Shown: in pieces, positions 1 through 16,305 of the stretch
Numbering within the stretch: position 1 is the first letter of the stretch
Layout: every line of letters begins with the position of its first letter
Assembly: GCA_051294375.1 (NCBI GenBank)
Contig: JBJCIZ010000192.1
Coordinates: 1-16,305, forward strand
Direction: 5' to 3'
Source of the DNA: Paraspadella gotoi
Lineage: Eukaryota > Animalia > Chaetognatha
DNA length: 16,305 bases
Notes under the pieces: generated by a model
Database searches by the model: none
The model's input: only the letters and a program-made list of their open reading frames with translations
What the model was told of the DNA's origin: nothing
Program-made: the position numbers and the translations under genes

Positions 1-96
1 TATGGGGAATGGTGCAAGGGGAAAACTTTTTTGCTGTGGCGTGATTTTATTTATCTCTTTCATGTCTTTTACTCTTACTTCTAGGAGTCAAAGAGA

Positions 97-864
97 ATGT
101 TGCAAGAGTTGCCATTGGAACTCTTACAAAAGATAGTGGGCTATCTGCCCATTAAAGAGAAACTACTACTGCTAGAGACGTCGGCTCTCTTCGACAAAGC
201 TGTCGATGTACAAATGGAAACGAAATCAACCTTTGAAATACGGCCCCGGAGACGATTAATCTTATGCTTGAACAGCGTCGACACTGACGGAAACATCGAG
301 CAAGCCCTTCAAACCTATAAAGAAGTTCATCTAATCATCGGCGCCGAAGTAACGGGAATTCCTGACCGCAAGCTAGCCAAAAGAGTGGTCAAGTTCATCA
401 AAAGGGTCACACACAAGGGGAGACATCGGTTCAAGATGGTGGAGTTGATGGGACGGCTGGGGAGTTGCCCATGCACATGGGGAGAGATCTTCAAGGGGAC
501 AGAGTCAGTTGTTCTTACCGACGATCAAGAGCCAGTAACCTTATGCCAAATGGGACAGGAAAGTGAAAGAGAAGCCTGTTTAATCTACAATGGACGGGGA
601 TTTTTGTCAGCAATGCAAGAAGTCCAAGATTCCATGGGGCCAGAAGTTCGGTTTCTTCTACGCGGAGATTTGATCAAATGTGATTTAATTCTCCCAATAG
701 CGGATGCCATCAAGGCCTTCGACGCCATCCACTGGTTTGACGAGGATATGGTCCCGCGAGTGGTCCCGAGTTTCAAGTTTGGCATCCCAAGGGAAATGTG
801 CTGTAATTATTGTGAAGAAAGGAGGCCCAAGGCCCATAAGGAAGCTCGTGATCTACTCTTTTGA
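97..864 (+). CDS. F-box protein (N-terminal F-box, unrecognised C-terminal domain), 255 aa
   Basis: N-terminus LQELPLELLQKIVGYLPIKEKLLLLETSALFDKAV fits the F-box pattern LPxExLxxIxxYLxxxxxxxLxxxSxxF; intact ORF preceded by acceptor-like TCTTTTACTCTTACTTCTAG (AG 83-84). Confidence 0.8.
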   Translation: MLQELPLELLQKIVGYLPIKEKLLLLETSALFDKAVDVQMETKSTFEIRPRRRLILCLNSVDTDGNIEQALQTYKEVHLIIGAEVTGIPDRKLAKRVVKFIKRVTHKGRHRFKMVELMGRLGSCPCTWGEIFKGTESVVLTDDQEPVTLCQMGQESEREACLIYNGRGFLSAMQEVQDSMGPEVRFLLRGDLIKCDLILPIADAIKAFDAIHWFDEDMVPRVVPSFKFGIPREMCCNYCEERRPKAHKEARDLLF

Positions 865-1004
865 TGGGGCAACAAATACTCAACTTCTTATGTTTTAGTT
901 ATCCATTTTTTTTATTTTTGTTTGTTGGTTTGTTCGAGTTCCCTTATGACTTTATTTTTCGTACTTACTCTTATAAGTTAATAGTAAATAGAACCAAGGG
1001 TAAC

Positions 1005-1511
1005 ATGGCCATTTCATGGGACGCCTTATGGGGATTGGAGGTCGACAAGGGGGAGGAAGATTTTCTAGCGGATTTAATTAATCAACAACCTCAACCCACG
1101 GGGGAATGGACAAATATGGAGCAACCAAATGTGTCAAACCTGGTCACCATGACAAGCAGTACTCAAGTTACCACCGTAGCCTCCCCTGAGGAGTCAAATC
1201 AAGGAATCACCGAGACAGACAATCCTGATTCTCAACTTTTCAGATGCGGGATTTGTGATGAAGCATTTCCCAATATCCATGCTCGAAGCTCTCACACTAG
1301 GGTTCACAAGCCCAAGTGCTATGAGTGTGGACTGAAGAGTTCATCAAGACACGCTCATCTCATTCATCAGTGGAATGAACATCCAAAGAAATACGGCTGC
1401 AAGTTTTGTGGTTATAAAACAAATTCCTTAACCGAAATGCCTTTCCACATTCTCAATCATGCAGAAATGCAGCCCGTGGCTGAAATGGTTTACGTTCATA
1501 TGGAGGGATAG
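1005..1511 (+). CDS. C2H2 zinc-finger protein (3 fingers) with acidic N-terminus, 168 aa
   Basis: FRCGICDEAFPNIHARSSHTRVH, KCYECGLKSSSRHAHLIHQWNEH and YGCKFCGYKTNSLTEMPFHILNH (nt ~1239-1460). Start placed at ATG 1005 (MAISW) because the upstream in-frame stretch is a T-rich spacer. Confidence 0.85.
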   Translation: MAISWDALWGLEVDKGEEDFLADLINQQPQPTGEWTNMEQPNVSNLVTMTSSTQVTTVASPEESNQGITETDNPDSQLFRCGICDEAFPNIHARSSHTRVHKPKCYECGLKSSSRHAHLIHQWNEHPKKYGCKFCGYKTNSLTEMPFHILNHAEMQPVAEMVYVHMEG

Positions 1512-1683
1512 GAATGGGGAACTTGATTCTAGAGAGGAATAGAAAAACGGGGTGAAGCCAAGGGGACGTGTTAAGAATTTTGTTTCACTGTTAATGATTT
1601 TTATTCTTTCATTGTATTGTTAAATATTTAGGTAAAAACAAAATTGAGTTAATGTTTTGTTTCTGTTGATTGTTTTAGCTAAG

Positions 1684-2229
1684 ATGTCGAGAAAAGTTAT
1701 GTGGGGAGAGGGCTTCTTGGACAACCGATGTGGCAACGTCATCGTCCGCAACCTCCGTGTTCAAGCAACCAATGAAGGGGAGAAAGACCCAGGGGAACGG
1801 GTTAACCAGATCCTGCAAGCCATGCAGACAATGATTTACCTGAAGGAATGGGAGGAAGAGACCGACATATTGCTCAAGTTGTGGAACCAGAAAGGGGGAG
1901 AAAAACTGGATGACTTGTCCAAGCTTCCAAGAAAAAAGAACCAACAGATCAAAAGAACATCTGCAGCCTTCAATGAGGCTCGTCAAGCATGCACTACCAA
2001 AGACTTAGGCACACTTGTCAAACATGCCGTTGCCCTCACAGGACATATTGTGGAACTCAAATACAAAAGAAAAGCAAAGTTCACAGACGAGATTGGACTG
2101 TTCATCCAACATATTTTGTCTATCATGAGGAAACCAATGGGGGATAATAAGGGGGATACTGATGGTCCAGAGAGTAGTGAGGAGGATTCCATGGGGGGTG
2201 AGTCATCCGACTCAGTGACTGTTGAATAA
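1684..2229 (+). CDS. Hypothetical helical protein with acidic/Ser-rich tail, 181 aa
   Basis: Intact ORF with GC/purine content like its neighbours, between AT-rich spacers; ATG 1684 is 5 nt after TTTTGTTTCTGTTGATTGTTTTAG (AG 1677-1678). No family recognised. Confidence 0.65.
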   Translation: MSRKVMWGEGFLDNRCGNVIVRNLRVQATNEGEKDPGERVNQILQAMQTMIYLKEWEEETDILLKLWNQKGGEKLDDLSKLPRKKNQQIKRTSAAFNEARQACTTKDLGTLVKHAVALTGHIVELKYKRKAKFTDEIGLFIQHILSIMRKPMGDNKGDTDGPESSEEDSMGGESSDSVTVE

Positions 2230-2410
2230 GTCAGAGGGTTAACCCAACAACGTGTTAGTTTGAATTCTATTGTTAAATTAAAATTTTTATTGTTAAATAT
2301 TGTTAAAATTTTAAAATTTATAAGATTTAGTCTTGCTGTCACTAGAATTTTTTTCATAATTCTTGAAATTTAATTGTTGCATAGTTAACTTTAGTTACAG
2401 GTCATGCACA

Positions 2411-3682
2411 ATGAATTTTAATTGGGAAAACCTGGAAGAGGTTAATGAACTGAGGAAGAGAATACGTTCAATGGAAGCTGAACAATCGGGACTGAAAAGC
2501 TGGTTGAACAAAGAAGTGGAAGAAAAGACTCGGCTTAAGATCATCCTGGACAATGAAGAAAGAGAAAGTAAAAGACTTCGCCGAGAATTGGAAAAAGAAA
2601 GGCAAGATGCTCACCGCATGAGACAAGTGGTTGTGGAATCAACTGGGGGCATAGAATTCCAAGCGGTCAAAGAAGATGGGTTTGCAATCGTTCCAATAAG
2701 AGAAATTACGGAGGAGTTACGAAGGGGAATAGAAGCGGATATTCTTGTTGGAATTTTAAAAAATAAGGGAGTGTACGAAGATGTGGTGATGGAATTAAGG
2801 GATTTTCAGGATATCCCAGCAAATGCTTTTGAAAATCCAGGATTTACCCGTGGAATCCCGTTTACCATAGAGGATAAGGAAATGGAGCCTTTATTAAAAT
2901 CACTCCAGAAGGACTTTGATATTACTAAATATCACAATCAGAATGAGGCGCTGAATCTGAAGACAAACCAACTACAGCTGAGGGAGCACCAGCTAAACCT
3001 CCGGGAGGAGGATCTTAAGAAAAAATCCCAGGTTATCCTTAGTTATATGAAGGACGAGCAAATGACTTTCCTAAACCAACAGAGGGATAGATTCAAGGAG
3101 ATGTGGAATGCGACTTGGACGTATAATGTGGTTGCAAAAAACCCGGTGGTTCCCTTTGAAAGAAAGAATAGTATTTCTCCAATTAGGTACGAAGTGGACG
3201 ATTATGGAAATGGGGCTAAAAAGGGGGATAGCAGTGAAGGGGTAAGAGTTAATGAAGAAAAAGATGGACCTGAGCTACAACTGGCGGTGAATGAAGAAGA
3301 GAGAGAGGAGTTTGAGACGAGCATGGGGATGTTAATGGAGGCAACTGAAGAAAGCCTCTTGAGCACTTTAAAGATCTACCAAGAAGCGGCAGATTGTCAT
3401 ATAGATGTCAGCAACCAGCTAAGTTCTTTCTTAAAGTATTGTGTCAAAAAGAAAAGAACTGGAGAAGAAATATTGCCATTCAAAACTTATATGCGGAAAC
3501 AACTCATTTGCCGAAAGTGTTATTGTACTCATGTCCGCCACTTGGATCCCATGTGCAGCAAAATGTGTTGTAATACTGTCCGCTGTCGCTATTGCTTGCA
3601 CCCCTACGACGGTCCCAAGAAATGTCAATGCAAATGTAAACATGCCCAGTCCTTCTTAACACACGTGATGGCAAACTTTTAG
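2411..3682 (+). CDS. Coiled-coil protein with C-terminal Cys/His-rich putative zinc-binding domain, 423 aa
   Basis: E/K/R/L-rich heptad-like segments (LEEVNELRKRIRSMEAEQ..., LNLKTNQLQLREHQLNLREEDL); C-terminal CRKCYCTH...CSKMCC...CRYCLH...CQCKCKH; ATG 10 nt after TTACAG (AG 2399-2400). Confidence 0.75.
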   Translation: MNFNWENLEEVNELRKRIRSMEAEQSGLKSWLNKEVEEKTRLKIILDNEERESKRLRRELEKERQDAHRMRQVVVESTGGIEFQAVKEDGFAIVPIREITEELRRGIEADILVGILKNKGVYEDVVMELRDFQDIPANAFENPGFTRGIPFTIEDKEMEPLLKSLQKDFDITKYHNQNEALNLKTNQLQLREHQLNLREEDLKKKSQVILSYMKDEQMTFLNQQRDRFKEMWNATWTYNVVAKNPVVPFERKNSISPIRYEVDDYGNGAKKGDSSEGVRVNEEKDGPELQLAVNEEEREEFETSMGMLMEATEESLLSTLKIYQEAADCHIDVSNQLSSFLKYCVKKKRTGEEILPFKTYMRKQLICRKCYCTHVRHLDPMCSKMCCNTVRCRYCLHPYDGPKKCQCKCKHAQSFLTHVMANF

Positions 3683-3894
3683 AGTAACTCATGGGGATTT
3701 TCTAAGGGGTTTTGCCAAATTGGGACACTGCAGGGCGTAGAACTACTCTACGCGGATATTCTATTATTATTGCTATTCGTATCAATACACTGATTGTGAT
3801 CAATTACATTGTCTAATTTCGATATTACCAGTAGTAAAAATCCTTAGTTCCTTTGTTTCATGTATTTTTGTTATTTAAATTCCAGTTTTACCCA

Positions 3895-5586
3895 ATGGAA
3901 ATTTTCCCGAATATTGATATTTTAAACTGTTTTGAGGCAAGGAGCCTTGATGAAAACTCAATAAAAACTCTCCAACAAGAGGACCCGAATATAGCCTTAC
4001 TAAGAAAACACGTGGAGGAGCAAACGGCTCCAAATTGGACTCTCAGTGGGCTGAACGAGTACAGAACGGTTTTTAAGAAACTACAAATCAACGACGAGAT
4101 AGTATTAAAAAGAAATCCTAACGGTGAAGAGGTTCCGCTCGTCCCTGAGAAGATAATCCAACAGGTACTTTATTCGGTTCATGGTGGGGCATTTTCTAAT
4201 CATTATGGGTTAACTAAAACATATTTAAAGCTACAGAGCAAATGCTATTTCCCGAGGATGATGTATAGAGTCGCAGAGTTTGTTAACTCTTGTCGTAAGT
4301 GTATAGAAAGAAAAATACCAGCTCGTGAAACTAAGGTAGAAACACAACCTATTCCATTTGAGGTTTTAGAAATAGGGGGCGTGATTTCTTATGACTTTAA
4401 GGGACCCTTGCCGCCGAGTGAAAAGAGTTCCTTATATCAAAGTAAAAATAGGTTTGTCTTAAGTATAATTGATTTTGCCTCTCGTTATGTCATAGGAACC
4501 CCTACTCCTACAATGGAGGCGGAAGTTGTTGCAGAAGTATTATTAAACGTATGGATACCACGATTCGGGGTTCCTCGCAAGGTAATTTCTGATCGTGCTC
4601 GGAGTTTTACGGGGAAGGTTATGAGGGTAGTTTATGATACTTTAAAAGTAGAAGTCGCGTTTACGGCGTCTTATAATCCTCAATGTAATGGCTTAATTGA
4701 ACAAACCAACCGTCATTTATCTAGTTTGCTAGCAGTGGTATTAGAAAATCATATTTATAGTTGGCCTCGTTACATTAATACTATTTTTAGTGCATATAAT
4801 GCAACGCCGCAATGTACAACTAAACTTTCGCCAAATTATATAGTTTATGGTCGAGAATTAGTAGAACCAATTGATTTTATTTTGGGTAGGTTCCGTGAAG
4901 GCGGGCGAAAGGAGAAAACGATTTACGACGAGCTGGAGGACCGAATAAAACTGCGCACTAAGGCCCTACACCTCCTGGAACTAAGGTACGCCGAGGCAAG
5001 CGAACGGGAGATTTCGAAATCTAAAGAAAAAGCTAATTCGTCTGTATTTCTAGTTGGAGATATGGTAGCCTTTAGGCCACCAGTAAAGCCAGGAAAGCTT
5101 GAGAGAAAAATGGAGTTATGTCACCAAGTAATTAAAATATTGTCTCCGTCGACATATGTAATCAAAAATTTAAATACAGGATTTGAAAGAATAGTAAACA
5201 GTAGAAGATTAAGGGGTTTAGGGCCACATAACGGTATTATTGATGAGCACTTAAACATCTCAGGGAGAGAAGACATGGGGGAGCGACCGACCACGGAGGC
5301 CACGCCCTTGCAGCAAGTTTCGTACGACGATACCGCTGATGAAGACTCGGAGGAAAGTAACGGGGAAGCCGGAAGAGACGAAGAAACGATCCCACTTAAA
5401 CAGGTGCAATGTAGAACTGAGGAGGGAAAAGCAATAAGACAGTCAGATGTCGAAATAAGCAAAATTATTATAGTAGATAAAAGCCTAAATGTTAATAAGG
5501 AGGCTGCTGCAACAGGGAGAACGGATGGTGGGGCTGGACAATATAATTTAAGGAGACGAGTGAAAAAAATTAATTATAAACTATAA
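3895..5586 (+). CDS. Ty3/Gypsy/Ginger-type DDE integrase, stand-alone ORF, 563 aa
   Basis: HHCC zinc domain (H-GGAFSN-H...CRKC); rve core SYDFKGPLP, IIDFASRY, ISDRARSF, YNPQCNGLIE with exactly 35 residues between the second D and the E; YNATP..TTKLSP motif; degenerate GPY/F-SH3-like region (FLVGDMV...KL...STYVI); basic C-terminal tail. Confidence 0.95.
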   Translation: MEIFPNIDILNCFEARSLDENSIKTLQQEDPNIALLRKHVEEQTAPNWTLSGLNEYRTVFKKLQINDEIVLKRNPNGEEVPLVPEKIIQQVLYSVHGGAFSNHYGLTKTYLKLQSKCYFPRMMYRVAEFVNSCRKCIERKIPARETKVETQPIPFEVLEIGGVISYDFKGPLPPSEKSSLYQSKNRFVLSIIDFASRYVIGTPTPTMEAEVVAEVLLNVWIPRFGVPRKVISDRARSFTGKVMRVVYDTLKVEVAFTASYNPQCNGLIEQTNRHLSSLLAVVLENHIYSWPRYINTIFSAYNATPQCTTKLSPNYIVYGRELVEPIDFILGRFREGGRKEKTIYDELEDRIKLRTKALHLLELRYAEASEREISKSKEKANSSVFLVGDMVAFRPPVKPGKLERKMELCHQVIKILSPSTYVIKNLNTGFERIVNSRRLRGLGPHNGIIDEHLNISGREDMGERPTTEATPLQQVSYDDTADEDSEESNGEAGRDEETIPLKQVQCRTEEGKAIRQSDVEISKIIIVDKSLNVNKEAAATGRTDGGAGQYNLRRRVKKINYKL

Positions 5587-5673
5587 TGGAGAATATAAAA
5601 CAGTTATGTTCAATTTAATTCATAGCAGTGAGTTAGCTTAGTAACTTAAGTCGTTGTAACCTTACCCTACCAG

Positions 5674-5893
5674 CTCTCTAAAAGAAAAGGAGGTAATCAT
5701 TCTTCACTCACGATCGGGGGATAAGAAAAGGAAGAAAATCCGCGCTACCGCCGCAGCGACTGTAGCAGCAGCAGCATCAGTAATAAACTTTTCTCGAAAC
5801 TGAAGGACACGGAATAGAAACGGAGATAAACGCGGCGGCGACTCACCCTTCGGCAAGAACAGGTGCCGATGCTTGGAAAAAAAAAAAAATTGA
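5674..5893 (+). pseudogene. Possible small basic exon interrupted by one TGA
   Basis: Acceptor-like CCTTACCCTACCAG (AG 5672-5673), then a GC-rich frame SLKEKEVIILHSRSGDKKRKKIRATAAATVAAAASVINFSRN*RTRNRNGDKRGGDSPFGKNRCRCLEKKKN*; no ATG. Confidence 0.25.
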
Positions 5894-6079
5894 TTAATTA
5901 ATCTATAAATAAATGATTAATTAAAAAATGGATAAATGATTAATTAAGCAATGAAAAAATGATTGGGAGAAATTCGACTACTAATCTAAAGTAAAATGTA
6001 ATGAAATATAATTAAGTATATTTCTGGTAGAGAATATCCTTTTTAATTTAATGTACTTTTAATTTCAAAGTTAATTTTA

Positions 6080-6122
6080 ACGCTGATAAAGACTCGAATA
6101 TGAAGAGTCGAAACATGTCCGT
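6080..6122 (+). ncRNA. Minimal type I hammerhead ribozyme-like motif (Penelope-like), core variant G8>A
   Basis: ACG-CTGATAA-A-GACTC-gaatatgaa-GAGTC-GAAA-CATGTC-CGT: stem I ACG/CGT, perfect 5-bp stem II, palindromic ACATGT helix III, GUC cleavage triplet; AATAAA follows. Confidence 0.5.
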
Positions 6123-6283
6123 ACATAAATAAAATCATTGATGAAACTATTTTCAAACTTTGTTAAATTTAATTTTAAATTGTGTTCTTTTTAATTAGGA
6201 AAGAAAAATAATAAAGGGATAAAGAAAGTTAAAACTTTTGATGAAAGACTATTAATTCTTTCTTTTTTTGTTTAAAATTATCA

Positions 6284-7465
6284 ATGATGGCGGAATATAT
6301 TACAGCAGAAAATAAAAATATAGTAAATCGATTTGTCTGCCTAATAAAGCAGGAAAAAATTAATGAAGCCTTCGAAATGGCGTTTGAGGAAGGGCCAACT
6401 CTAAAGGCTGTGCATATTGCTATAGAATGTAACTGTGAATCATTACTTCAGAAACTAATAGGAGGGGGATGGGATCTAAATGAGGCACGGGAGTTTGATC
6501 GTAACCGCCCTATACACGAAGCCATTAACTATAAGAGAGTTTCTATGTTTAAGCTGCTTTTGGGAAGTGGAGCTTCTTTTAGGAAGGGGGATGGATCGGG
6601 GAATACAGCTTTAATGAAACTATTTCAAATGCCCTGGGACGAGAGAAGTGAGAAAATGTATGAGATTCTAGAACCGTTACTACGTAAGGATGATTATGGT
6701 AGATATAATTATCACGGCGACTCAATTTTACATATTTTAGTATCAAACAATTCTATTCAATCTCCAGCCACCGTTCTGTCTATGATTGATAAGGGCGCCG
6801 ATATAAGAAGGAGAGACGCTTATTTGCAAGATAATTTTTTGATAAAATGCTTAATAAAGAGAGACGAAACCTTCATGATTACTATATTAGATGGGTTGGA
6901 AGAGAGAGGGCTAAAGATTAATATCCGTGGCTCAGCGGGAAACCCAGTTCTCCATCGGGCTATTATTGAGGAAAAGAATGCAGTTATAAATAGGATTTTA
7001 GAGTCAGCACAAACCAAAGTAAATACTGAAAATAGTAGGGGACAAACGGCGTTATGGCTGGCAGCCAAAATGGGTAACACTCAATTAGTACAAGACCTAT
7101 ATGAGAAAGGGGGAAGCCTGAATGATAAGGCCTTGATTGACTGTGGTTCCACCTCAAGAACCCCGGTACATGCAGTCGCCGCTAAATTTAACCATCTTTT
7201 ATTGAGTATCATTATTAAAGAATGGGAAACTGAAAGGGGGCTTGGTAACGCGGTGAACTGTGACCCAGGCCGAATAGTTAAGGATCTTAGAAATTTATGT
7301 AAAATTAAAATTAGAACAAGCTTATTACGAGCAAATCAAGGTCGAATGCTCTTTTCTAAACATTACGATGGGCTCCCTCTTCCAGAGAGGCTTAAGAAAT
7401 ATATCAGGATGCCTGGTAGAATGGGCTTAGTAAATTGTAATACGTTAAGAGTAAAAGGTGTTTAG
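6284..7465 (+). CDS. Ankyrin-repeat and SOCS-box protein (ASB-like Cul5 substrate receptor), 393 aa
   Basis: Multiple ankyrin repeats (RPIHEAI, GNTALMKL, GDSILHIL, GNPVLHRAI, GQTALWLAAKMGN, RTPVHAVA); C-terminal BC box KDLRNLCKIKIR plus Cul5 box LPLPERLKKYI (nt 7277-7405). Confidence 0.9.
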   Translation: MMAEYITAENKNIVNRFVCLIKQEKINEAFEMAFEEGPTLKAVHIAIECNCESLLQKLIGGGWDLNEAREFDRNRPIHEAINYKRVSMFKLLLGSGASFRKGDGSGNTALMKLFQMPWDERSEKMYEILEPLLRKDDYGRYNYHGDSILHILVSNNSIQSPATVLSMIDKGADIRRRDAYLQDNFLIKCLIKRDETFMITILDGLEERGLKINIRGSAGNPVLHRAIIEEKNAVINRILESAQTKVNTENSRGQTALWLAAKMGNTQLVQDLYEKGGSLNDKALIDCGSTSRTPVHAVAAKFNHLLLSIIIKEWETERGLGNAVNCDPGRIVKDLRNLCKIKIRTSLLRANQGRMLFSKHYDGLPLPERLKKYIRMPGRMGLVNCNTLRVKGV

Positions 7466-7753
7466 TAAAATTCTTATTGTTATTATTACAATTTATTCCC
7501 CGTCATGATCAGATAATAATTTTTAAAATAAACATATTTTAACTACCGTCAAAGTATAATTCATCCATTCACGTAAGAATAATATTTGGATATAGTTTAA
7601 TTAGTTTATGGTTCAAACAATAGCATAGCAAACTCTTGTTAGACATTTTACCGCTTGGTTTAAATAAAAATTGGGTTGTCTCTATTAATCTGTTTGTTAG
7701 AACAGTAAAAAGATTACTACTTAGTTACGGAAATGCTAACTTAAACCTTTCAG

Positions 7754-7965
7754 ACATTCAACGGAACCACGCATGGATAAAGGCGTTGATCATCAAGGGG
7801 AACATGAACAAGAGGATTGAAAGCATTTTGGCGCCGAACACTGCACTCACGGTGCAACGACTAAGAGGGAGATGACGTGAGTCACGGCGAACACAGCGGC
7901 GGACAAACGCGGAATATTTAATTGAAACTGAGCTGCGACGAATAACTGGCGAAAAAAGAAGATAG
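7754..7965 (+). pseudogene. Small Arg-rich exon with one internal TGA
   Basis: Branch-like GCTAAC plus TTAAACCTTTCAG acceptor (AG 7752-7753); frame IQRNHAWIKALIIKGNMNKRIESILAPNTALTVQRLRGR*RESRRTQRRTNAEYLIETELRRITGEKRR* covers the GC-rich island. Confidence 0.35.
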
Positions 7966-9240
7966 CGTGACCTATTATTGTTGCCTCAAGCTACGAAGTC
8001 CTCCCTCCTTGGGGGAATATTGTAAAAATAGTTACATTATGAGATTATTACTTGATCGTTATTTGAATGTTACTAAATTGGGTAACCCATATTTTATAGG
8101 ATAATATTTTCCAATACCCGAAAATAACCTCCAATTCCATCCAATTGAATTGTTAATTGTTCTGGTTCGCTCGGGTAAGGTGCAAAGAATCAATTAGATC
8201 AGTTAACGCCCGTTTATTACTCCTTGTCTGCTAAGTAAAACTGTTAGTAGAGTCAGTCTTTTGTTTTATAATTCCTTGATGATAACAACGGGAGAAATAG
8301 TACAAATAGTAACGAATTAATAAGATAATGATGTAGATTTCACACGTTTTTTGATCAGTTGGTTAGCGTCATTATGATAAATGAAATTTCTTTTATCTCT
8401 GAAGAGGAAAGATCAATCAGTTTTTAATTTACGCCGTGAACCATTATGGATTTTTTATGGGTTGAGTAAAGGATACTCAGCTTGTTTTCATCTAAATACG
8501 ACTTTTGGTTTTAATTCTACATGATACGACTGATTTTGTGATTTTCTGTGATTATTAATAAAAAGTGAACTATAGCCATAGTAATAGGTTTAAAATAATT
8601 ATAATCATTGACTTAAATTAAAACCTCTTTGGTTAATATGATTATAATAGTTAATATTATACTACTATATAGAGTTAACACTAATAATTAAAACATAAGC
8701 TTAAATCTGTTTAAAACATGTAGCTACTGAGGAATACTCTAAAATTTCAAATTATTGGTTTAATTAATAAAACAAAATATGCTATACTATACATATGTAT
8801 ATATATGAAGGTAAAAGATGCTCTTTTTTTTTCTTAGGGAAAATATTCCAGGTTCGCTCGTGTTTAAGTTTAGTTCGTCCAGCTCCAGTCTATCGTTATG
8901 GAACACATATTCGTTCTGAGGATCTATTTTAATGCATTAAAATTAAATTATTATTATTTAAATATTCTTATACCAGAATTTAACTGATTAACTGATTAAA
9001 CGTTTTTGAGGAAACTCGATGCCAATATATTATTAATCTTAAGTATAATTAATGAGTAAGAGCCATCTGGGAACTTTTTTTTTGCGCGGAATAATACACC
9101 GGTTAAACGTGTCGATTTTTTTTTGCTTTACGGTTTTGCGAATGTAAATTTTCTCTTCATTTACAATACAAAAGTGTAGTATAAGGTTTTAATTTTATAT
9201 TATTAAGTTTTGGGAATGTTAATAATTAAAGGTCCGCTCC

Positions 9241-9406
9241 CGTTGCTTTTCACATTTTGGCTTTGCAAATTTATAAAAAACTTTTCGGCACGTCTCATCG
9301 TTGCTTCTCAGCATTTTGGCATTGCGAATTTATCAAAATTTTTTGATACGTGTCTCGTGGCATTTCGGCACCTTGGCTTTGCTAGTTTATCAATTTTTTT
9401 TCCCGT
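9241..9406. repeat. Three diverged tandem copies of a ~57-bp unit
   Basis: Units start at 9241, 9299 and 9356 and share CGT(T/G)GC...CA(T/C)(T/C)TTGGC(T/A)TTGC...TTTAT.AA. Confidence 0.75.
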
Positions 9407-9418
9407 ATTTACAACAGT

Positions 9419-9421
<3 letters not shown>

Positions 9422-9461
<40 letters not shown>
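9422..9461 (+). repeat. Poly(A) tract (40 nt)
   Basis: Uninterrupted A run. Confidence 0.95.
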
Positions 9462-9463
<2 letters not shown>

Positions 9464-9738
9464 ATAAAAATAAATAAATAATATATTTTACTTTCGGTAA
9501 CGGAATACTACTGCCGGCGTATGTGGATGCTTTTTTTTTTTTTTTTTTCGTCAGTTGTAATTAATTAATTAATGGTAAAAACTTTTTATTACTTTACCAG
9601 TGTCCTTTTCCATTTTGCGTAATGAAATAGCTAATATACTCAAGTAGAGAAGTATCTTTTATTTTTTTTGTTAGGCAACCTACTGTATTAATTGTAAAAT
9701 GTTTTCTATTAATTTATAGAGTCAGTCCTGATACTAAT

Positions 9739-10737
9739 ATGGCGTCTTGGCCAGTACCGGCTGGAGCGGAGGACGAACTTGAATGGGAATTCCAAGAAAC
9801 TTTGCGAATCGCGATTGAGGCAAGTCTCCGAGAAGTGCCACATCAACCTCAGATAGTATTCAATAACGCGGAACAAACCAAGAGGAATTCTGGAAAGGGG
9901 CGCCAAATGGAATTGGTGGAAGAAGGGACTCACGAGCCAACATATGGAATCCAGACAGAAGGGGCCGCACAAGGAGAAGAAGAGACAACGGTCCGGCCAC
10001 AAGCGCCGATCTTTACCTTGGAGGAGATCGTTGAAAGGGGTGTGGACGAGTCATTCGACCCTTTTGAACTCAGGTGTCTAATCTGCCTTGATCTGGCCAG
10101 AATTCCGGTGATGATGAAGGGCTGCAAGAAGATCCTCTGCAAATCGTGCATTGATACGTGGACTGCCGGCCACGTTTCATGCCCTCACTGTCGGCGTCGT
10201 AACCCTGGCTACATAAGTACAGATGAATCCTTTGTAATAGATCTAGTAAAGGAAGTTGATGAAACAAAAGAAAGGGTAAAGAAATGGGGGATTGAGGAAG
10301 GAAAAAGGAGGGAAAGGCAACAAAGAGAGGGGCGACTCGTCGACGCTGAAGCTCAGACGGATCAACGAAAAGAGCTTCAACAAAGAGGGAGACGGCTCGT
10401 CGACGCCATAGCTCAGACAGATCAAAAACGTCAACAAGGGGGCACCCATCAAAAGGGGGAAATTCGAGTCAACGCTACGAGACCTAACAGGGGGGACTCG
10501 CCGGAGACACTTAATAGGAGGGCCAATGCTTTCATGTCTGCCCTGGACTCATCTCTAAACCAGGCACCTGCCGAGGAAGTTCTAGTTTACGACGGCCTGC
10601 GCACTCAAAACCGGCCCACAGCGGAATTTGTTTCATCTTATCGCGAATTACCAGAGCAGGGGGCGGAGACGGGGCTGTTGCTAACGACACGGGAAATGCT
10701 GACGAGACATCCGCATCAGCCACGCTGCAGGTTTTGA
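9739..10737 (+). CDS. UIM + RING-finger protein (putative E3 ubiquitin ligase), 332 aa
   Basis: UIM-like EDELEWEFQETLRIAIEASLRE (nt 9769-9834); RING-like CLIC-x12-CKKILCKSCIDTW-x6-CPHCR (nt 10075-10191); acceptors at AG 9673-9674 and 9718-9719. Confidence 0.85.
   Translation: MASWPVPAGAEDELEWEFQETLRIAIEASLREVPHQPQIVFNNAEQTKRNSGKGRQMELVEEGTHEPTYGIQTEGAAQGEEETTVRPQAPIFTLEEIVERGVDESFDPFELRCLICLDLARIPVMMKGCKKILCKSCIDTWTAGHVSCPHCRRRNPGYISTDESFVIDLVKEVDETKERVKKWGIEEGKRRERQQREGRLVDAEAQTDQRKELQQRGRRLVDAIAQTDQKRQQGGTHQKGEIRVNATRPNRGDSPETLNRRANAFMSALDSSLNQAPAEEVLVYDGLRTQNRPTAEFVSSYRELPEQGAETGLLLTTREMLTRHPHQPRCRF
10318..10437 (+). repeat. In-frame 60-bp tandem duplication inside the RING gene
   Basis: QQREGRLVDAEAQTDQRKEL / QQRGRRLVDAIAQTDQKRQQ; DNA lines 10321 and 10381 align in register. 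Confidence 0.85.
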
Positions 10738-10912
10738 AAACAGCACAAAGCTTAATAATAAAAAAAAAAAAATATATATATATATTTTATTATTAAAATA
10801 AAAGTAAATAGTCAATATACTAAAATGTAAAATTGAAAGTGGTAACGTGGTAAATGGGTTAAGGTAAAATGAAGAACCCAGTAGTAATTATAAAAATGAT
10901 ATAAATTTTTAG

Positions 10913-11111
10913 GTTGTACCACAATGTGACAGAGTTCATCCATGCGGCGACCACCATCGGTGAAAGCGGAAGGGCGGTGACGGTACACGCGGTATTGGCA
11001 AAAATCTCTGATTGCCGCTTCTGCAACCACGCGCCGTGCATGGTGGAAGTAAGGGGGAAAAAGATGAGGACGCAGCCGCATACGCACCTCCAATGCTATA
11101 GGTTCGTGTAA
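10913..11111 (+). CDS. Small Cys/His-containing coding exon lacking an N-terminal ATG
   Basis: AAATTTTTAG acceptor (AG 10911-10912) then GC-rich open frame LYHNVTEFIHAATT...CRFCNHAPC...HTHLQCYRFV*. Confidence 0.4.
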
Positions 11112-11328
11112 ACTAATGTGAATTGCAGTGTTTATCCAGTTAACTTCATTACGTAATATAGATAATATAAAGTAAATAATACAAGTATATTTTGTGAGAT
11201 GCCCATTGCCCAGTATTACTGTACCTTACTAAGTGTTCATTGTACCTATAAGCATATGGACGAATCAACTTAGTGTCATAAAAATTGCATAAATATAATA
11301 AAAATAATAAATCCTTTATTAATCATAG

Positions 11329-11686
11329 CCTTTGCTGCGGGCGATTTCTAAATCGGACAACGCTGCAATTTGATGGAGGAAATTGTGACTGTGGGATAGC
11401 CTTGATGTTCAACCTAAATGTACTTCCGGCGACGCAAGAAGAAAACAAGGGGCTCCGTGCGGCGTATTCTTACAAAAAAGACTTATGGCTAATCCATAGA
11501 GTGCATCACGCACTAAAGTCTTACTTCCGTCTCCTAGAAACAAGTAATCGTTGGGACGTGGAACTTAAAGTATTAAAAAGGGGAAGAGAAGGGTTACGGC
11601 GATTCCTCGCTCAAAATCATAGTGGCCTCATACAAGACCTTAAGGAACTAGTGGCTGAGGCGGAGAGAGAGGAAAAGGGGATTTAA
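11329..11686 (+). CDS. Hypothetical coding exon (~118 aa; internal ATG at 11405)
   Basis: TCCTTTATTAATCATAG acceptor (AG 11327-11328) marks the switch from AT-rich to coding-like sequence; frame LCCGRF...CDCGIALMF...EAEREEKGI*. Confidence 0.5.
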
Positions 11687-12565
11687 GGGGGTACCAGCTG
11701 TAGTATAGTTACCATTTACTCGATCCTTGAATTTTTTTCTATTGATCAAGGCATGTAGCCTGCTCTGTTCACTTTTATAATTGTTACGTTGCCATTAAAA
11801 ATACTTCAATCAGAATATTAATTGTACTGTGAGCAGTTGCTTACTAATACATTCCTGTTCTTTCTTCTCTTTGTAGCTTTGCTGTTATTGTTGCCTATTG
11901 AGTTTCGAGTTTGATTTTATTGGTTCGCATATTAATTTAAATTGTTTTACTGTTACTACAATATTGAAAATAAATTTCAATTAAAATGTGTCCGGTTTAG
12001 TACCAATTTGAGTTATCAGACCTACTTAATGGATAGATTGGTACGTTAGTCAGATTAGTATCATCAAAACCCGAATTTTGAGGTAAAAACCTAGACAGAT
12101 TGCTGAAGTAAAAGTCGATTGTTAAACCACGTCAAAGTTTATTGTGTGACTTCGCTGACGGAATGATGAACAGGAGATCAACGGTTAGGCGAAGTACATA
12201 GCCTAATATTTAAAAATAAATTGCCGGAAAAACGATTTTTGAATGTTAGTGAGGGGGAGAGGGAGAGATAAGAACATTCACTAAATATTAAAAAAATCGT
12301 GTACTTCCCAAACAAACCATACAATGATTTATAAACTGTCTGCTTCAACGTGAACAAGGAGAAACCTGTAAATAGTTTGAAATATACAACAAATTCTATT
12401 GTATTATGAATTACCAAGTTACGACCTGATGACTTACCTAAGTACCCTCACAATACCAAACAACAACTAACAGTAAAATCACAGTACCAAGAACAATACA
12501 AACCAAGTGAATGTGACGTGAACCTCAGACCCAAATAACATAAAGCTCACAAACTAACCTACTAG

Positions 12566-12751
12566 CCAAAAGTAACCCTGCTACATCCGGATTTCCCTTC
12601 TGACGTTCGTGATCAAATTCATGGGGGAATATTGCTTCTACTGGGAAAAACCGTGGATGCATCGTCCAAACAAAAGGACGTCGAGCAATTACAGAGTGGC
12701 CTCAAGAAAACTTTTGGGGAAGAAAAAAGGGGGGAAATGGTAAAAGGTTAA
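12566..12751 (+). other. Possible small ATG-less exon (61 codons)
   Basis: After CTAACCTACTAG, open frame PKVTLLHPDFPSDVRDQIHGGILLLLGKTVDASSKQKDVEQLQSGLKKTFGEEKRGEMVKG*; acceptor is weak. Confidence 0.25.
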
Positions 12752-13008
12752 TTATAATGGATACAGGGTGGTCAAAAAAAAAAAAATATATATTATATAT
12801 TAATAAATATTTGATTAAAAATAGATAAATATTAAATAGTATACTATAAATAAGATTAAATTAAATAAGAATAATAAATAGAATATAATAATACAGTAAA
12901 TAAATAATTAATAAATAAAATTATAATTTAATAAATTAAATAGTACTCTATATGGATGACTAACCGTGTTAATATTAAACGAGGATCTTATATCAGAGAT
13001 TTTGATGT

Positions 13009-13018
13009 GGGAAGGGAA
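13009..13018 (+). other. Polypurine tract (plus-strand primer site)
   Basis: GGGAAGGGAA directly abutting TGTTATAAG, the proposed LTR start. Confidence 0.65.
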
Positions 13019-13776
13019 TGTTATAAGAAATTGTTAATAGCATGATTTTTGATATCTTTTACATATATCATGATATATAAGCAGTTATAATTTGTGTAAT
13101 TTCTTTTCAGGTTTGTATAAAACTTTTGTTTAGAAAGAAAGAGGAACCTTTTATAAAATTATATATATTAATTAATTAACTTAAAATCATATGGTTTGGT
13201 TAATATAAATAATATAAAAATAGTAAAGAAAAAGACTATAGGAAGAAATAAGATTATTAACGAAGATTAAGTATAATTGGGTATTAAATTGGTTAATTTT
13301 GCCACATCATAAAAAGATAGGTGAGATTGACGAATCCAAGGGAGCAGAGGAATTAAAACGTTAGAGATAATAAGATAGAAAAAGAATTGATCAGGAATTT
13401 GTGAAATAACGAGCTTAGAGATTTTCTAAACTCATACAGTGAACGAAAGAAATGCTATTTGTAAGGTTTCATCAAGTGAGATAACATTAAACAGAGAGAT
13501 GTTGTGGAGCTTCTCTCTACTTGTTAGATAAAGCCAAATCAGAAAGCAGAAATGATCAGGTTACCAATAAGAATTCAGTATAAATTAATTGAGCGTAAGA
13601 AGGGATCTTTAGAGATTTAGAAATTAGATTGAAATCAGAGTAGTAGCGTAAGAGTTCAGGCAAGGAGAAACTGAATAGTTTCAAGTACATCCCCGTAACG
13701 CAATTATCGAAACGGAATATAATTATATATTATCTACTATGGATATGTGCATAAAGAACGAGAGCTCAGTAGGGCT

Positions 13777-13811
13777 TATAAAAGGAGAGGGAGCTGCTTG
13801 AAAGGACAGTC
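13777..13811 (+). promoter_or_regulatory. LTR core promoter: TATA box and initiator-like element
   Basis: GGGCT-TATAAAA-GGAGAG at 13777-13783; ACAGTC (Inr-like, A at 13808) 31 nt downstream. Confidence 0.55.
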
Positions 13812-14125
13812 CTCATTTCCACTCTGATTAGGGACAATATATGCATACCCCACTTCTTCTAGGGCTGAAGTTAATATTTGGGTAGTGTGTTACTATAAAA
13901 TAGTAACAATTTATAAGGTTAACCTAAATATAATTGGCCAGAATAGTACCCCAAGTACTATGGTGGTTACTACTTAGTAAAAGAAGTAGTGTAACATAAT
14001 TACAGAGTGTATAAACCAAACCCTAAATGGGAAACTGTAAATAATTAATATTCGTACAACTAATTCCTGTTCCTCTTTCTATATATTTTTGTGTAATTAA
14101 TTGTGGTCTGGCTAGATTGGATGGT

Positions 14126-14131
14126 AATAAA
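14126..14131 (+). terminator. Candidate LTR polyadenylation signal AATAAA
   Basis: AATAAA downstream of the TATA box, followed ~20 nt later by CA and a GT-rich TTGTGTGTCT. Confidence 0.4.
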
Positions 14132-14518
14132 GTAGAATTATAGTAATATATCATTGTGTGTCTACTATAGAGACCAGCTAGAATATGAGATTTTGGTTAG
14201 GCTAAGGGAACAACAGGGAATTGCTTTTAGATACCAAGTGATGCCCTGGGCTAGGAACTGATAGGGCCTTGAGGGACTTCTTCAACAGGTTAGCCTGGAT
14301 AAGGTTTAGGAACTATATATAACCCTTATTAGCTAGAATATAAATATCTATCATATTATAATCTGTGGACTGAGATATGAACTAAACTGGTGCACCAGTA
14401 TACGTATAAGGTATAAAGACTCCTGACTTACCGACACCAAACGGGTGAACCCCGGGCTCTAGGAATATTAAAACAACATATAATTTCTAGAACAGTTCGT
14501 CCTTGAAGTCGTCGTGAC

Positions 14519-15283: not shown

Positions 15284-16305
15284 AGTTCACGGAAGCGAAG
15301 TGCGAAGAAATTAATCGGGCGAAGAATAATGGAATTGTGAAATGTGAACTCAGTGTAAATCATGAGGTGAAAACTCACGAGCGTATTCTCTCTCTCGTTC
15401 GCTCTTTCGCTCCCTTAACTTATCAGTTCGCATTCTCTCGCTATCTTCTTTTGGTGAATTTTCTAATAGAATCAAGTTACTAAAACATTTCAAAAAAATA
15501 TTAAAGCTTGCATTTTTACTGTTGGGACAGGCTAACTATACTAATATGGGGGTAGGGAATCTGATGGTAAGGTCAAAACCGTCGAAACCTCGATATCGCT
15601 TGACTACCAGGCCTGAATGAGCTTTTTAGCTTTTTTTAGAATTTCCCATAATTTTTGTAGTTTATTATTATCCAACTGAAATAAACAATAATTAATTAGT
15701 TTTTTATTCTTTTTTTTACCCATTTAAAGTACAATTAATGATTTACTTTAATATTTTTTCTTCTTAGCCCTAAACGACATAATACCTCAAAAAAAGGTTT
15801 TTTTAAAATTTTGCTAAAAATTTATTCTGATTTTTTTGTAATCACTATTTTAAATTGGCAAACATTTAATTCAGGAATAATAAAGTCTTGGTTTGTCTTG
15901 GCATGGTAAGTTTTATTTATCTTCATAGTAAATTATGGACATTTTTGAAGAAGTCATATCTTCATCAGCATAAATTAAAAATTTTTGGAACATGGTTTGA
16001 GAAGAAAAAAAAGAGGAGAGAGAGTGAGAGAGATGGAATTGTTTCCTTCAAAACCATGTTTCCCAAAACTTTTAATTTGCACTGATGAAAACTCTAGTAT
16101 TCACCAAGACCTATTATCACAGTATTATTTTTTAATTATATTAAAAAGAAATTCATATATTAAGTAAAATTGATGAATAAAATTCAAGCTTCAGAATTGA
16201 GTCAATGTTAGGACAGGAGAAAGTAAGGGAAGGGAAGGAGGGTGAGTAAATTTGAGATTGGTAAAAAAAAAAAGAGAGAGAGATCAATACATTTGGCAAT
16301 GTACA

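Follow-up and report, generated by a model that had tools for sequence, protein, structure and literature searches.

A plus-strand gene array around a Ty3/Gypsy-like integrase in the chaetognath Paraspadella gotoi carries candidate adaptors of host ubiquitin ligases

Genes of the ubiquitin-ligase type at the locus

The stretch of DNA analysed here, called the window, comprises 16,305 nucleotides of the chaetognath Paraspadella gotoi (contig JBJCIZ010000192.1 of assembly GCA_051294375.1). Its DNA is of eukaryotic type and rich in A+T, and the right quarter contains microsatellites. One strand carries seven open reading frames (ORFs) of 168–563 aa, with gaps of only ~140–210 nt among the first five (Table 1). 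This array contains a stand-alone integrase gene together with an F-box gene, an ankyrin-SOCS box gene and a RING gene, which we consider here as candidate accessory genes of a mobile element. A preliminary description of this DNA had placed the last three on the plus strand, and all three ORFs were found where it put them, the RING ORF at 9739–10737.

The window was compared with sequencing data from nine runs of one organism (three studies) that contain bases 1–7500. The stretch is present in all nine runs, and half or more of its words occur in eight of them; the runs X3, X5, X6, X7 and X9 were used for comparison. X3 is possibly the source of this DNA and hence not independent, and X9 was taken as RNA from its splice joints, no run being recorded as RNA. 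None of nine versions of the window ORFs was present in the protein collection, Rfam and tRNA scans of the window gave no match, and a scan of prokaryote genomes gave no relative in nine stretches.

Table 1. Features of the window
Feature	Position	Strand	Remarks
F-box and leucine-rich repeat (LRR)-like solenoid protein, FBXL-type architecture	97–864	+	255 aa; predicted substrate receptor of the SKP1-CUL1-F-box (SCF) ligase
Break points of the deletion form	350–9782		9,431 nt lost; F-box gene joined out of frame to RING gene
C2H2 zinc-finger ORF	1005–1511	+	168 aa from internal ATG; weak Pfam zf-C2H2 matches, all below cut-off
ORF3	1684–2229	+	181 aa; no family found
ORF4	2411–3682	+	423 aa; charged N-terminal half, dense Cys/His C-terminus
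Six-exon RNA path	3877–7940	+	X9; introns 4165–4495, 4582–4889, 4986–5263, 5404–5673, 5863–7753
Ty3/Gypsy-like integrase, own ORF	3895–5586	+	563 aa; Pfam H2C2 and rve
Short high-copy genomic repeat	6081–6164		120 nt upstream of ankyrin ORF, between integrase and ankyrin genes
Ankyrin-repeat and SOCS-box protein, ASB-type architecture	6284–7465	+	393 aa; predicted Elongin B/C-CUL5 substrate receptor
RING gene exon 1	9739–10730	+	motif like the ubiquitin-interacting motif (UIM), aa 13–32; atypical RING, aa 113–151; charged region
RING gene exon 2	10913–11101	+	Cys/His-rich, in frame; no Pfam family
RING gene exon 3	11329–11686	+	in frame; includes 93-aa ORF 11405–11686
Non-coding stretch	11687–12786		covered with the element in DNA runs to poly-A/AT-rich tract; possible right part

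The Pfam F-box match of the first gene stays under the cut-off of 20.5 bits, both over the whole ORF (14.8 bits) and over residues 1–48 (18.5 bits), and here the F-box assignment of the preliminary description fell short, but it stood on other grounds. A full HMMER scan yielded 15 relatives at 25–36% identity; 10 of them, from ENA and JGI, are hypothetical or without name. The family conserves L-P-x-E, I-x-x-Y/F-L and an invariant E27, and 7 of 16 aligned members give weak Pfam F-box matches. The AlphaFold2 model (predicted local distance difference test 89.6, predicted template modelling score 0.85) has three N-terminal helices followed by a solenoid of ~7 beta-alpha units. In the VIA structure search, LRR folds ranked top, with Z of 8.2–8.9 and a root-mean-square deviation (rmsd) of 3.9–5.5 over ~160 residues. 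Residues 1–216 of the model align with residues 10–243 of FBXL2 (Z 7.7, rmsd 6.0, 195 residues), and the LRR chain of a ligase-substrate complex, 4i6j_B, matches at Z 8.8; Z values of this order are intermediate for repeat folds. Entries for FBXL17, SKP2 and COI1 were also among the VIA rows. The Atlas search placed the ORF with F-box clusters at 0.92–0.96. Foldseek found nothing for the model at E<=0.001 in PDB or BFVD, and the top PDB rows, TIM barrels with template modelling scores of 0.3–0.4, were rejected. Pfam gave no LRR match in the ORF, and PDB sequence searches with the ORF and its alignment returned spurious rows only. The relatives, the model, the structure matches and the Atlas together support the prediction of an FBXL-type receptor. 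It resembles host FBXL proteins (FBXL2, SKP2, FBXL17) in joining an F-box to an LRR-like solenoid, but the solenoid is short and irregular, and the sequence is only 7–13% identical to the FBXL-type chains.

The ankyrin-SOCS box gene bore out what had been claimed for it, including the LPLP Cul5 box. Both of its domains pass Pfam: Ank_2 at E 3e-17, and the SOCS box (cut-off 23.5) at 24.0 bits within the full-length protein and at 28.3 bits by itself. A BC-like box (for binding of Elongin B/C) lies at aa 334–343 and the Cul5 box at aa 364–374, and the combined pattern of BC box and LPLP occurred in none of 20,000 shuffles. The first BC-box residue is D and deviates from the consensus, in which this position is S/T/A/P. 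The protein shares ankyrins and a C-terminal SOCS box with the host ASB receptors. No close relative was found among 3,962 candidates, and the nearest ankyrin relatives are 12 generic matches at 20–32% identity. Both this ORF and the F-box ORF are uninterrupted and adjoin an integrase, in which they are unlike host FBXL and ASB genes.

The preliminary description had also reported a UIM-RING protein. Its RING passes Pfam by a narrow score (27.5 bits, cut-off 27.3), but the C3HC4 pattern is incomplete, with seven Cys in RING spacing and Lys at the position of the His ligand. The UIM was found by regular expression only (a pattern that 59 of 20,000 shuffles also match), with no Pfam UIM match at E<=10. 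The residues that form the binding surface for the ubiquitin-conjugating enzyme (E2) in the RING family, namely Ile, Trp and Pro with the linchpin Arg, are present in the sequence. The best solved match is the RING of TRIM37 (3lrq), which likewise has Lys where C3HC4 RINGs have His; TRIM37 has an extra Cys-Pro-His just upstream that is absent here, and no match extends over the remaining protein. The ORF is likely exon 1 only, because X9 contains GT-AG joints 10730–10913 and 11101–11329 (one contig, depth 2.8; not in the DNA runs) and a single phase is open: the three exons joined give 512 aa without a stop, the other phases holding 2–9 stops per exon. The spliced protein thus likely gains a Cys/His-rich C-terminal part. 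Two small indels near 9880–9910, net one codon, distinguish all runs from the window and lie outside the UIM and RING.

Parts of the RING gene also occur in a diverged second copy with ~92% identity. In exon 3, 10 of 14 differing codons are synonymous (15 of 28 differences listed; P ~1e-4 with a synonymous site share of 0.22), and in exon 1 the same holds for 7 of 10 codons among the differences listed. Neutral decay among copies, named beforehand as something that would speak against the accessory-gene view, was thus not seen where the data allow a test. In the gap before the RING gene, positions 9253–9401 hold ~2.5–3 tandem copies of a 57–59-nt unit, followed by a 39-nt poly-A tract.

The integrase and its splicing

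The integrase retains its zinc-binding HHCC residues (H96, H103, C133, C136) and its catalytic DDE residues (D167, D233, E269). Its ORF begins after an in-frame stop and is separate from any reverse transcriptase (RT)/RNase H frame in the window; no RT similarity was found within the window. Among 21 matches, 17 are 44–53% identical and none of these carries an RT domain; the other four are 24–29% identical, with RT in three of them. This search took in proteins up to 986 aa, so that longer fused forms lay outside its scope. Of 16 aligned relatives, 14 start at or slightly before the start of the window integrase, and the HHCC and DDE residues are invariant in the 17 aligned integrases where covered. 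The window integrase and 16 relatives form a clade (support 100/99, branch 2.78, with a long-branch warning on its placement) in a tree of 29 rows, from which six matches with <170 aligned residues were excluded (P0017, P0021 and four locus ORFs) and which holds no labelled Ginger or Gypsy reference. The best solved match is Ty3 Gag-Pol 1020–1449 (E 4e-26).

Stand-alone integrases of this kind are known from the Ginger DNA transposons. Ginger1 has a Gypsy-like integrase with H2C2 and DDE, YPYY and GPY/F motifs, and OTU/Ulp1 proteases, which one Ginger1 family lacks (PMC2836005, in the part available). The window integrase falls outside Ginger1 as so defined, because YPYY and GPY/F are absent, as judged by regular expression, from all 17 aligned integrases; Pfam found H2C2 and rve only, with no OTU or Ulp1 domain in the ORF. 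Ginger2/Tdd elements, according to the same part of that source, likewise lack YPYY and GPY/F and have terminal inverted repeats (TIRs) of 50–300 bp, TGT ends, target-site duplications of 4–5 bp and a length of <~7 kb (PMC2836005). The window integrase agrees with them in having H2C2 and DDE without YPYY or GPY/F; no TIR pair lies around it within the window, whose left edge leaves the left end outside. The clade fits neither Ginger1 nor the usual pol of Gypsy elements and could represent a group not yet described.

A metagenome scan with the integrase alignment gave 17 loci from 44 stretches, with best segments at 23–32% identity. Two of them, L001 and L007, were set aside as ordinary gag-pol elements. 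In L007, an ORF adjoining the gag-pol element (7471–8811) has a cystine-knot-like C-terminus, which we take to resemble the TGF-beta family.

The RNA of this region is spliced across the integrase gene. Five GT-AG joints, from 4164 to 7754, lie on one X9 contig (depth 9.9), and the end of the RNA path was computed from the extent of that contig. All seven codons for zinc-binding and catalytic residues fall inside introns, the spliced frame runs for 106 aa before its stop, and the ankyrin gene is lost with the last intron. The spliced RNA is thus unable to encode integrase; the full-length enzyme would require unspliced message, and splicing would in this way gate integration. All seven GT-AG joints of the integrase and RING genes have AG/GT donors. 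A strong acceptor lies within 40 nt of 3 of 8 ORFs, compared with 10 of 127 control windows. A separate splice acceptor for each ORF is only suggestive, as the runs show no joint of this kind. Poly-A/AT-rich tracts (5877, 10747) lie within ~30 nt after the donors 5863 and 10731, with similar tracts at 9422 and 12774.

The remaining ORFs of the array lie to the left of the integrase. ORF4 had no relative among 5,527 candidates and nothing in the Atlas, PDB or NCBIfam; it sits where a gag-like gene might be expected. A 43-nt skip at 1326–1370 of the C2H2 ORF in X9 has 5-nt matching ends, is not GT-AG and was rejected as an intron.

Extent and nature of the array

We lean slightly towards reading this array as a large, low-copy, unclassified integrase element whose accessory genes hijack host cullin ligases. 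The element is likely >12 kb long and built on an intact stand-alone Gypsy-type integrase. That the genes belong to one mobile element, as had been proposed, agrees with the compact same-strand array around an intact integrase, but no termini were found. X9 contigs cross gene borders, in the gap between the C2H2 ORF and ORF3 and from the integrase to past the ankyrin gene, and no step in read cover is seen where the integrase gene begins or ends. In a deletion form the F-box gene is joined to the RING gene, which confirms their linkage independently of the assembly. Of the 12 bases at its break points, 11 match, and the form occurs in three of five runs from two studies, as a joint in X3 and X5 and a shared loose end in X5 and X7, and not in X6 or X9. 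X3 alone has duplicated GATC sites at 11743 and 12610, as in proximity-ligation libraries, and therefore calls for caution over joints seen in X3 alone.

On the right, cover runs to ~12770–12786, where a repeat cuts the contigs. Farther to the right, a purine tract at 13009–13021 with TGT at 13019 and a TATA-like sequence near 13776 resembles the start of a long terminal repeat (LTR), with no partner copy in the window. Positions 13278–14213 are uncovered in four runs, which carries no weight as evidence, and positions 15500–16305 are taken up by a repeat of very high copy number, whose inverted arms of 51 nt lie at 15961–16011 and 16039–16089.

Several observations weigh against the reading as a large integrase element, and some of them favour one of its alternatives. 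The window contains no LTR pair, TIR pair or target-site duplication, the left end lying outside it; it has no long direct repeat, and its only inverted repeats are a single flank hairpin and low-complexity sequence. The host repeat at 6081–6164 splits the integrase from the ankyrin gene; its summed depth in X3 reaches ~51,000 against ~200 for the core, and each of the four runs compared shows loose ends at either side of it. For 10 clusters of F-box relatives, the length of the longest contig agrees with none of those of the integrase relatives, and ORF4 and the ankyrin ORF are without close relatives, so that no sign of cargo shared among relatives was seen. Splicing is known from one contig per transcript in one run. 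Allelic differences over the whole array are five synonymous and five non-synonymous; in the F-box and ankyrin genes, all four are synonymous. Introns interrupt the RING gene, which also has its own paralog, and the G+C content at third codon positions (GC3) is heterogeneous (0.35 for integrase and ankyrin genes, 0.43–0.53 for the remaining genes).

The last two of these points would suit expanded host families of F-box, ankyrin-SOCS and RING genes in repeat-rich DNA, among which a small Ginger2-like transposon has landed. The absence of YPYY and GPY/F, shared with Ginger2, fits such a transposon, as does the finding that the Atlas clusters nearest to the F-box ORF are ordinary eukaryotic F-box families; F-box genes of Caenorhabditis tend toward TE (transposable element)-rich regions (PMC12062965, in its available part). 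We nevertheless regard this arrangement as improbable, as no inverted repeats flank the integrase, all ORFs lie on one strand with narrow gaps and with RNA contigs crossing gene borders, the F-box and ankyrin ORFs are uninterrupted, and read cover passes the integrase borders without a step.

Other points against a multi-copy element concern the number of copies. Core contigs in X3 are near-identical, with 0–1 differences over 1.1–4.3 kb, and no diverged second copy of the core at >=85% identity appeared in the deepest run among the matches listed. The core depth in X5 is ~8, compared with 7.4 for a flank piece among the matches listed, although depth does not equal copy number; being similar to the flank, the core is therefore possibly one locus. 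In that case the deletion form may represent one of its alleles. These findings, together with the presence of the stretch in every run and the non-catalytic nature of the sole integrase-spanning spliced RNA seen, would be expected of an old insertion, now fixed at one locus, that the host has retained or co-opted, with adaptors that serve the host and splicing that silences the integrase. We hold this to be unlikely. The HHCC and DDE residues are intact, whereas Imagin, a domesticated Ginger1 gene, has lost its DDE (PMC12863088, as far as its available text goes). The 9.4-kb deletion form in three runs removes or breaks most genes of the array, and identical recent copies would give the same picture in these data.

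Quite remote is the explanation that the window is a fragment of an endogenous large DNA virus, similar to nudiviruses, nimaviruses or Polintons, that brought its own integrase. Large DNA viruses often carry F-box, ankyrin and RING genes, and viral F-box and LRR proteins appear among weak Foldseek rows, none better than E 0.03. Pfam and family searches of the window ORFs, however, found no viral hallmark gene in 16 kb, and of four scans of viral contigs one gave a marginal match over 47 residues and three were empty, with no close relative. Polintons carry PolB, ATPase and protease genes (PMC6431247, in its accessible part); PolB, a packaging ATPase and a cysteine protease are lacking among the ORFs of the window, beyond which the left part lies, and the integrase is nearest to Ty3.

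Comparison with known systems and proposed function

The proposed large integrase element can be compared with known elements. The planarian retrotransposons Burro/GYPSM1 have LTRs of 5-kb scale. They are giant elements of the Gypsy-like LTR type whose extras relate to ubiquitin and apoptosis, namely RING-linked AIR1, MATH, BIR, ankyrin and ubiquitin/SUMO-like domains, and interference with host systems has been suggested for them (PMC6431247). The array resembles Burro in its large size, Gypsy-type integrase and ubiquitin-related extras. In contrast, Burro has gag, protease (PR), RT, RNase H and integrase (IN), thousands of copies and extras mostly within the polyprotein, according to the portion of that source consulted, whereas in this array the integrase and every cargo gene have an ORF to themselves and neither an RT nor an LTR was seen in the window. 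F-box and SOCS-box cullin adaptors, as found here, are not among the Burro extras described in the accessible part of PMC6431247. Ginger elements, as far as the available descriptions go, measure ~2.6–7 kb and have TIRs and one transposase, whereas this array has six or more extra ORFs; furthermore, Ginger introns build the integrase frame and those found here destroy it. GingerRoot is described in the available part of PMC6839031 as carrying gene fragments. The array is like Gypsy/Ty3 in the type of its integrase and unlike them in having no RT/RNase H pol frame in the window. A literature search, judged by its listings and the opening lines of abstracts and with Repbase and most subscription papers outside its range, showed no published element that combines such an integrase with genes for F-box, SOCS-box and RING proteins.

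The proposed action of the cargo follows what is known of the respective protein families. In the first protein, the F-box would bind SKP1-CUL1 while a substrate is held by the LRR-like solenoid; in the second, the SOCS box would bind Elongin B/C-CUL5 while a substrate is held by the ankyrins; and the RING would bind an E2, a contact possibly weakened by the missing zinc ligand. The redirected SCF, the CUL5-based ligase (CRL5) and the E2 would then tag proteins of the host for degradation, from which the element would benefit. That the substrates are host silencing or antiviral factors restricting the element is suggested by analogy, and we consider it doubtful as a specific assignment; cell-cycle, apoptosis or other germline regulators are, as a guess, equally open. 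The viral systems behind this analogy share one logic, in which an adaptor of the parasite aims a host ligase at a host protein, and the likeness of the array to them lies in this logic, no link in sequence or structure having been seen here. HIV Vif, the poxvirus ankyrin/F-box proteins, ICP0 and CrPV-1A with its BC box are viral ligase hijackers. Polerovirus P0 is another (PMC5737661, available in part). Among transposons, counter-defence is documented mainly for the VANC proteins of plant MuDR/VANDAL elements, accessory proteins that counter host silencing (PMC13547354, in the part at hand); VANC is a MAIN-like DNA/chromatin factor, unlike the ubiquitin-ligase modules considered here.

The preliminary description was largely right, and the present picture is richer by a spliced RING gene, an integrase that may be gated by splicing and a distinct integrase clade. 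Its counter-defence account is plausible by analogy with the viral systems. A broader proposal, which we advance only tentatively and hold at well below an even chance, is a new large-transposon lineage in which a deep-branching Gypsy-type integrase, expressed by itself, is silenced by splicing and a virus-like block of accessory genes taps two cullin ligases and adds a RING ligase (E3) against silencing or restriction factors.

The ubiquitin-related cargo of Burro and Ginger1 carries no functional test in the accessible parts of PMC6431247 and PMC2836005. In this array the adaptors and the RING protein are small separate ORFs, and their partners and substrates are therefore directly accessible to pull-down. 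Through these substrates, it would become clear which host factors hold the element in check. If the broader proposal is true, the array would be the transposon counterpart of Vif, P0 and ICP0 within one element.

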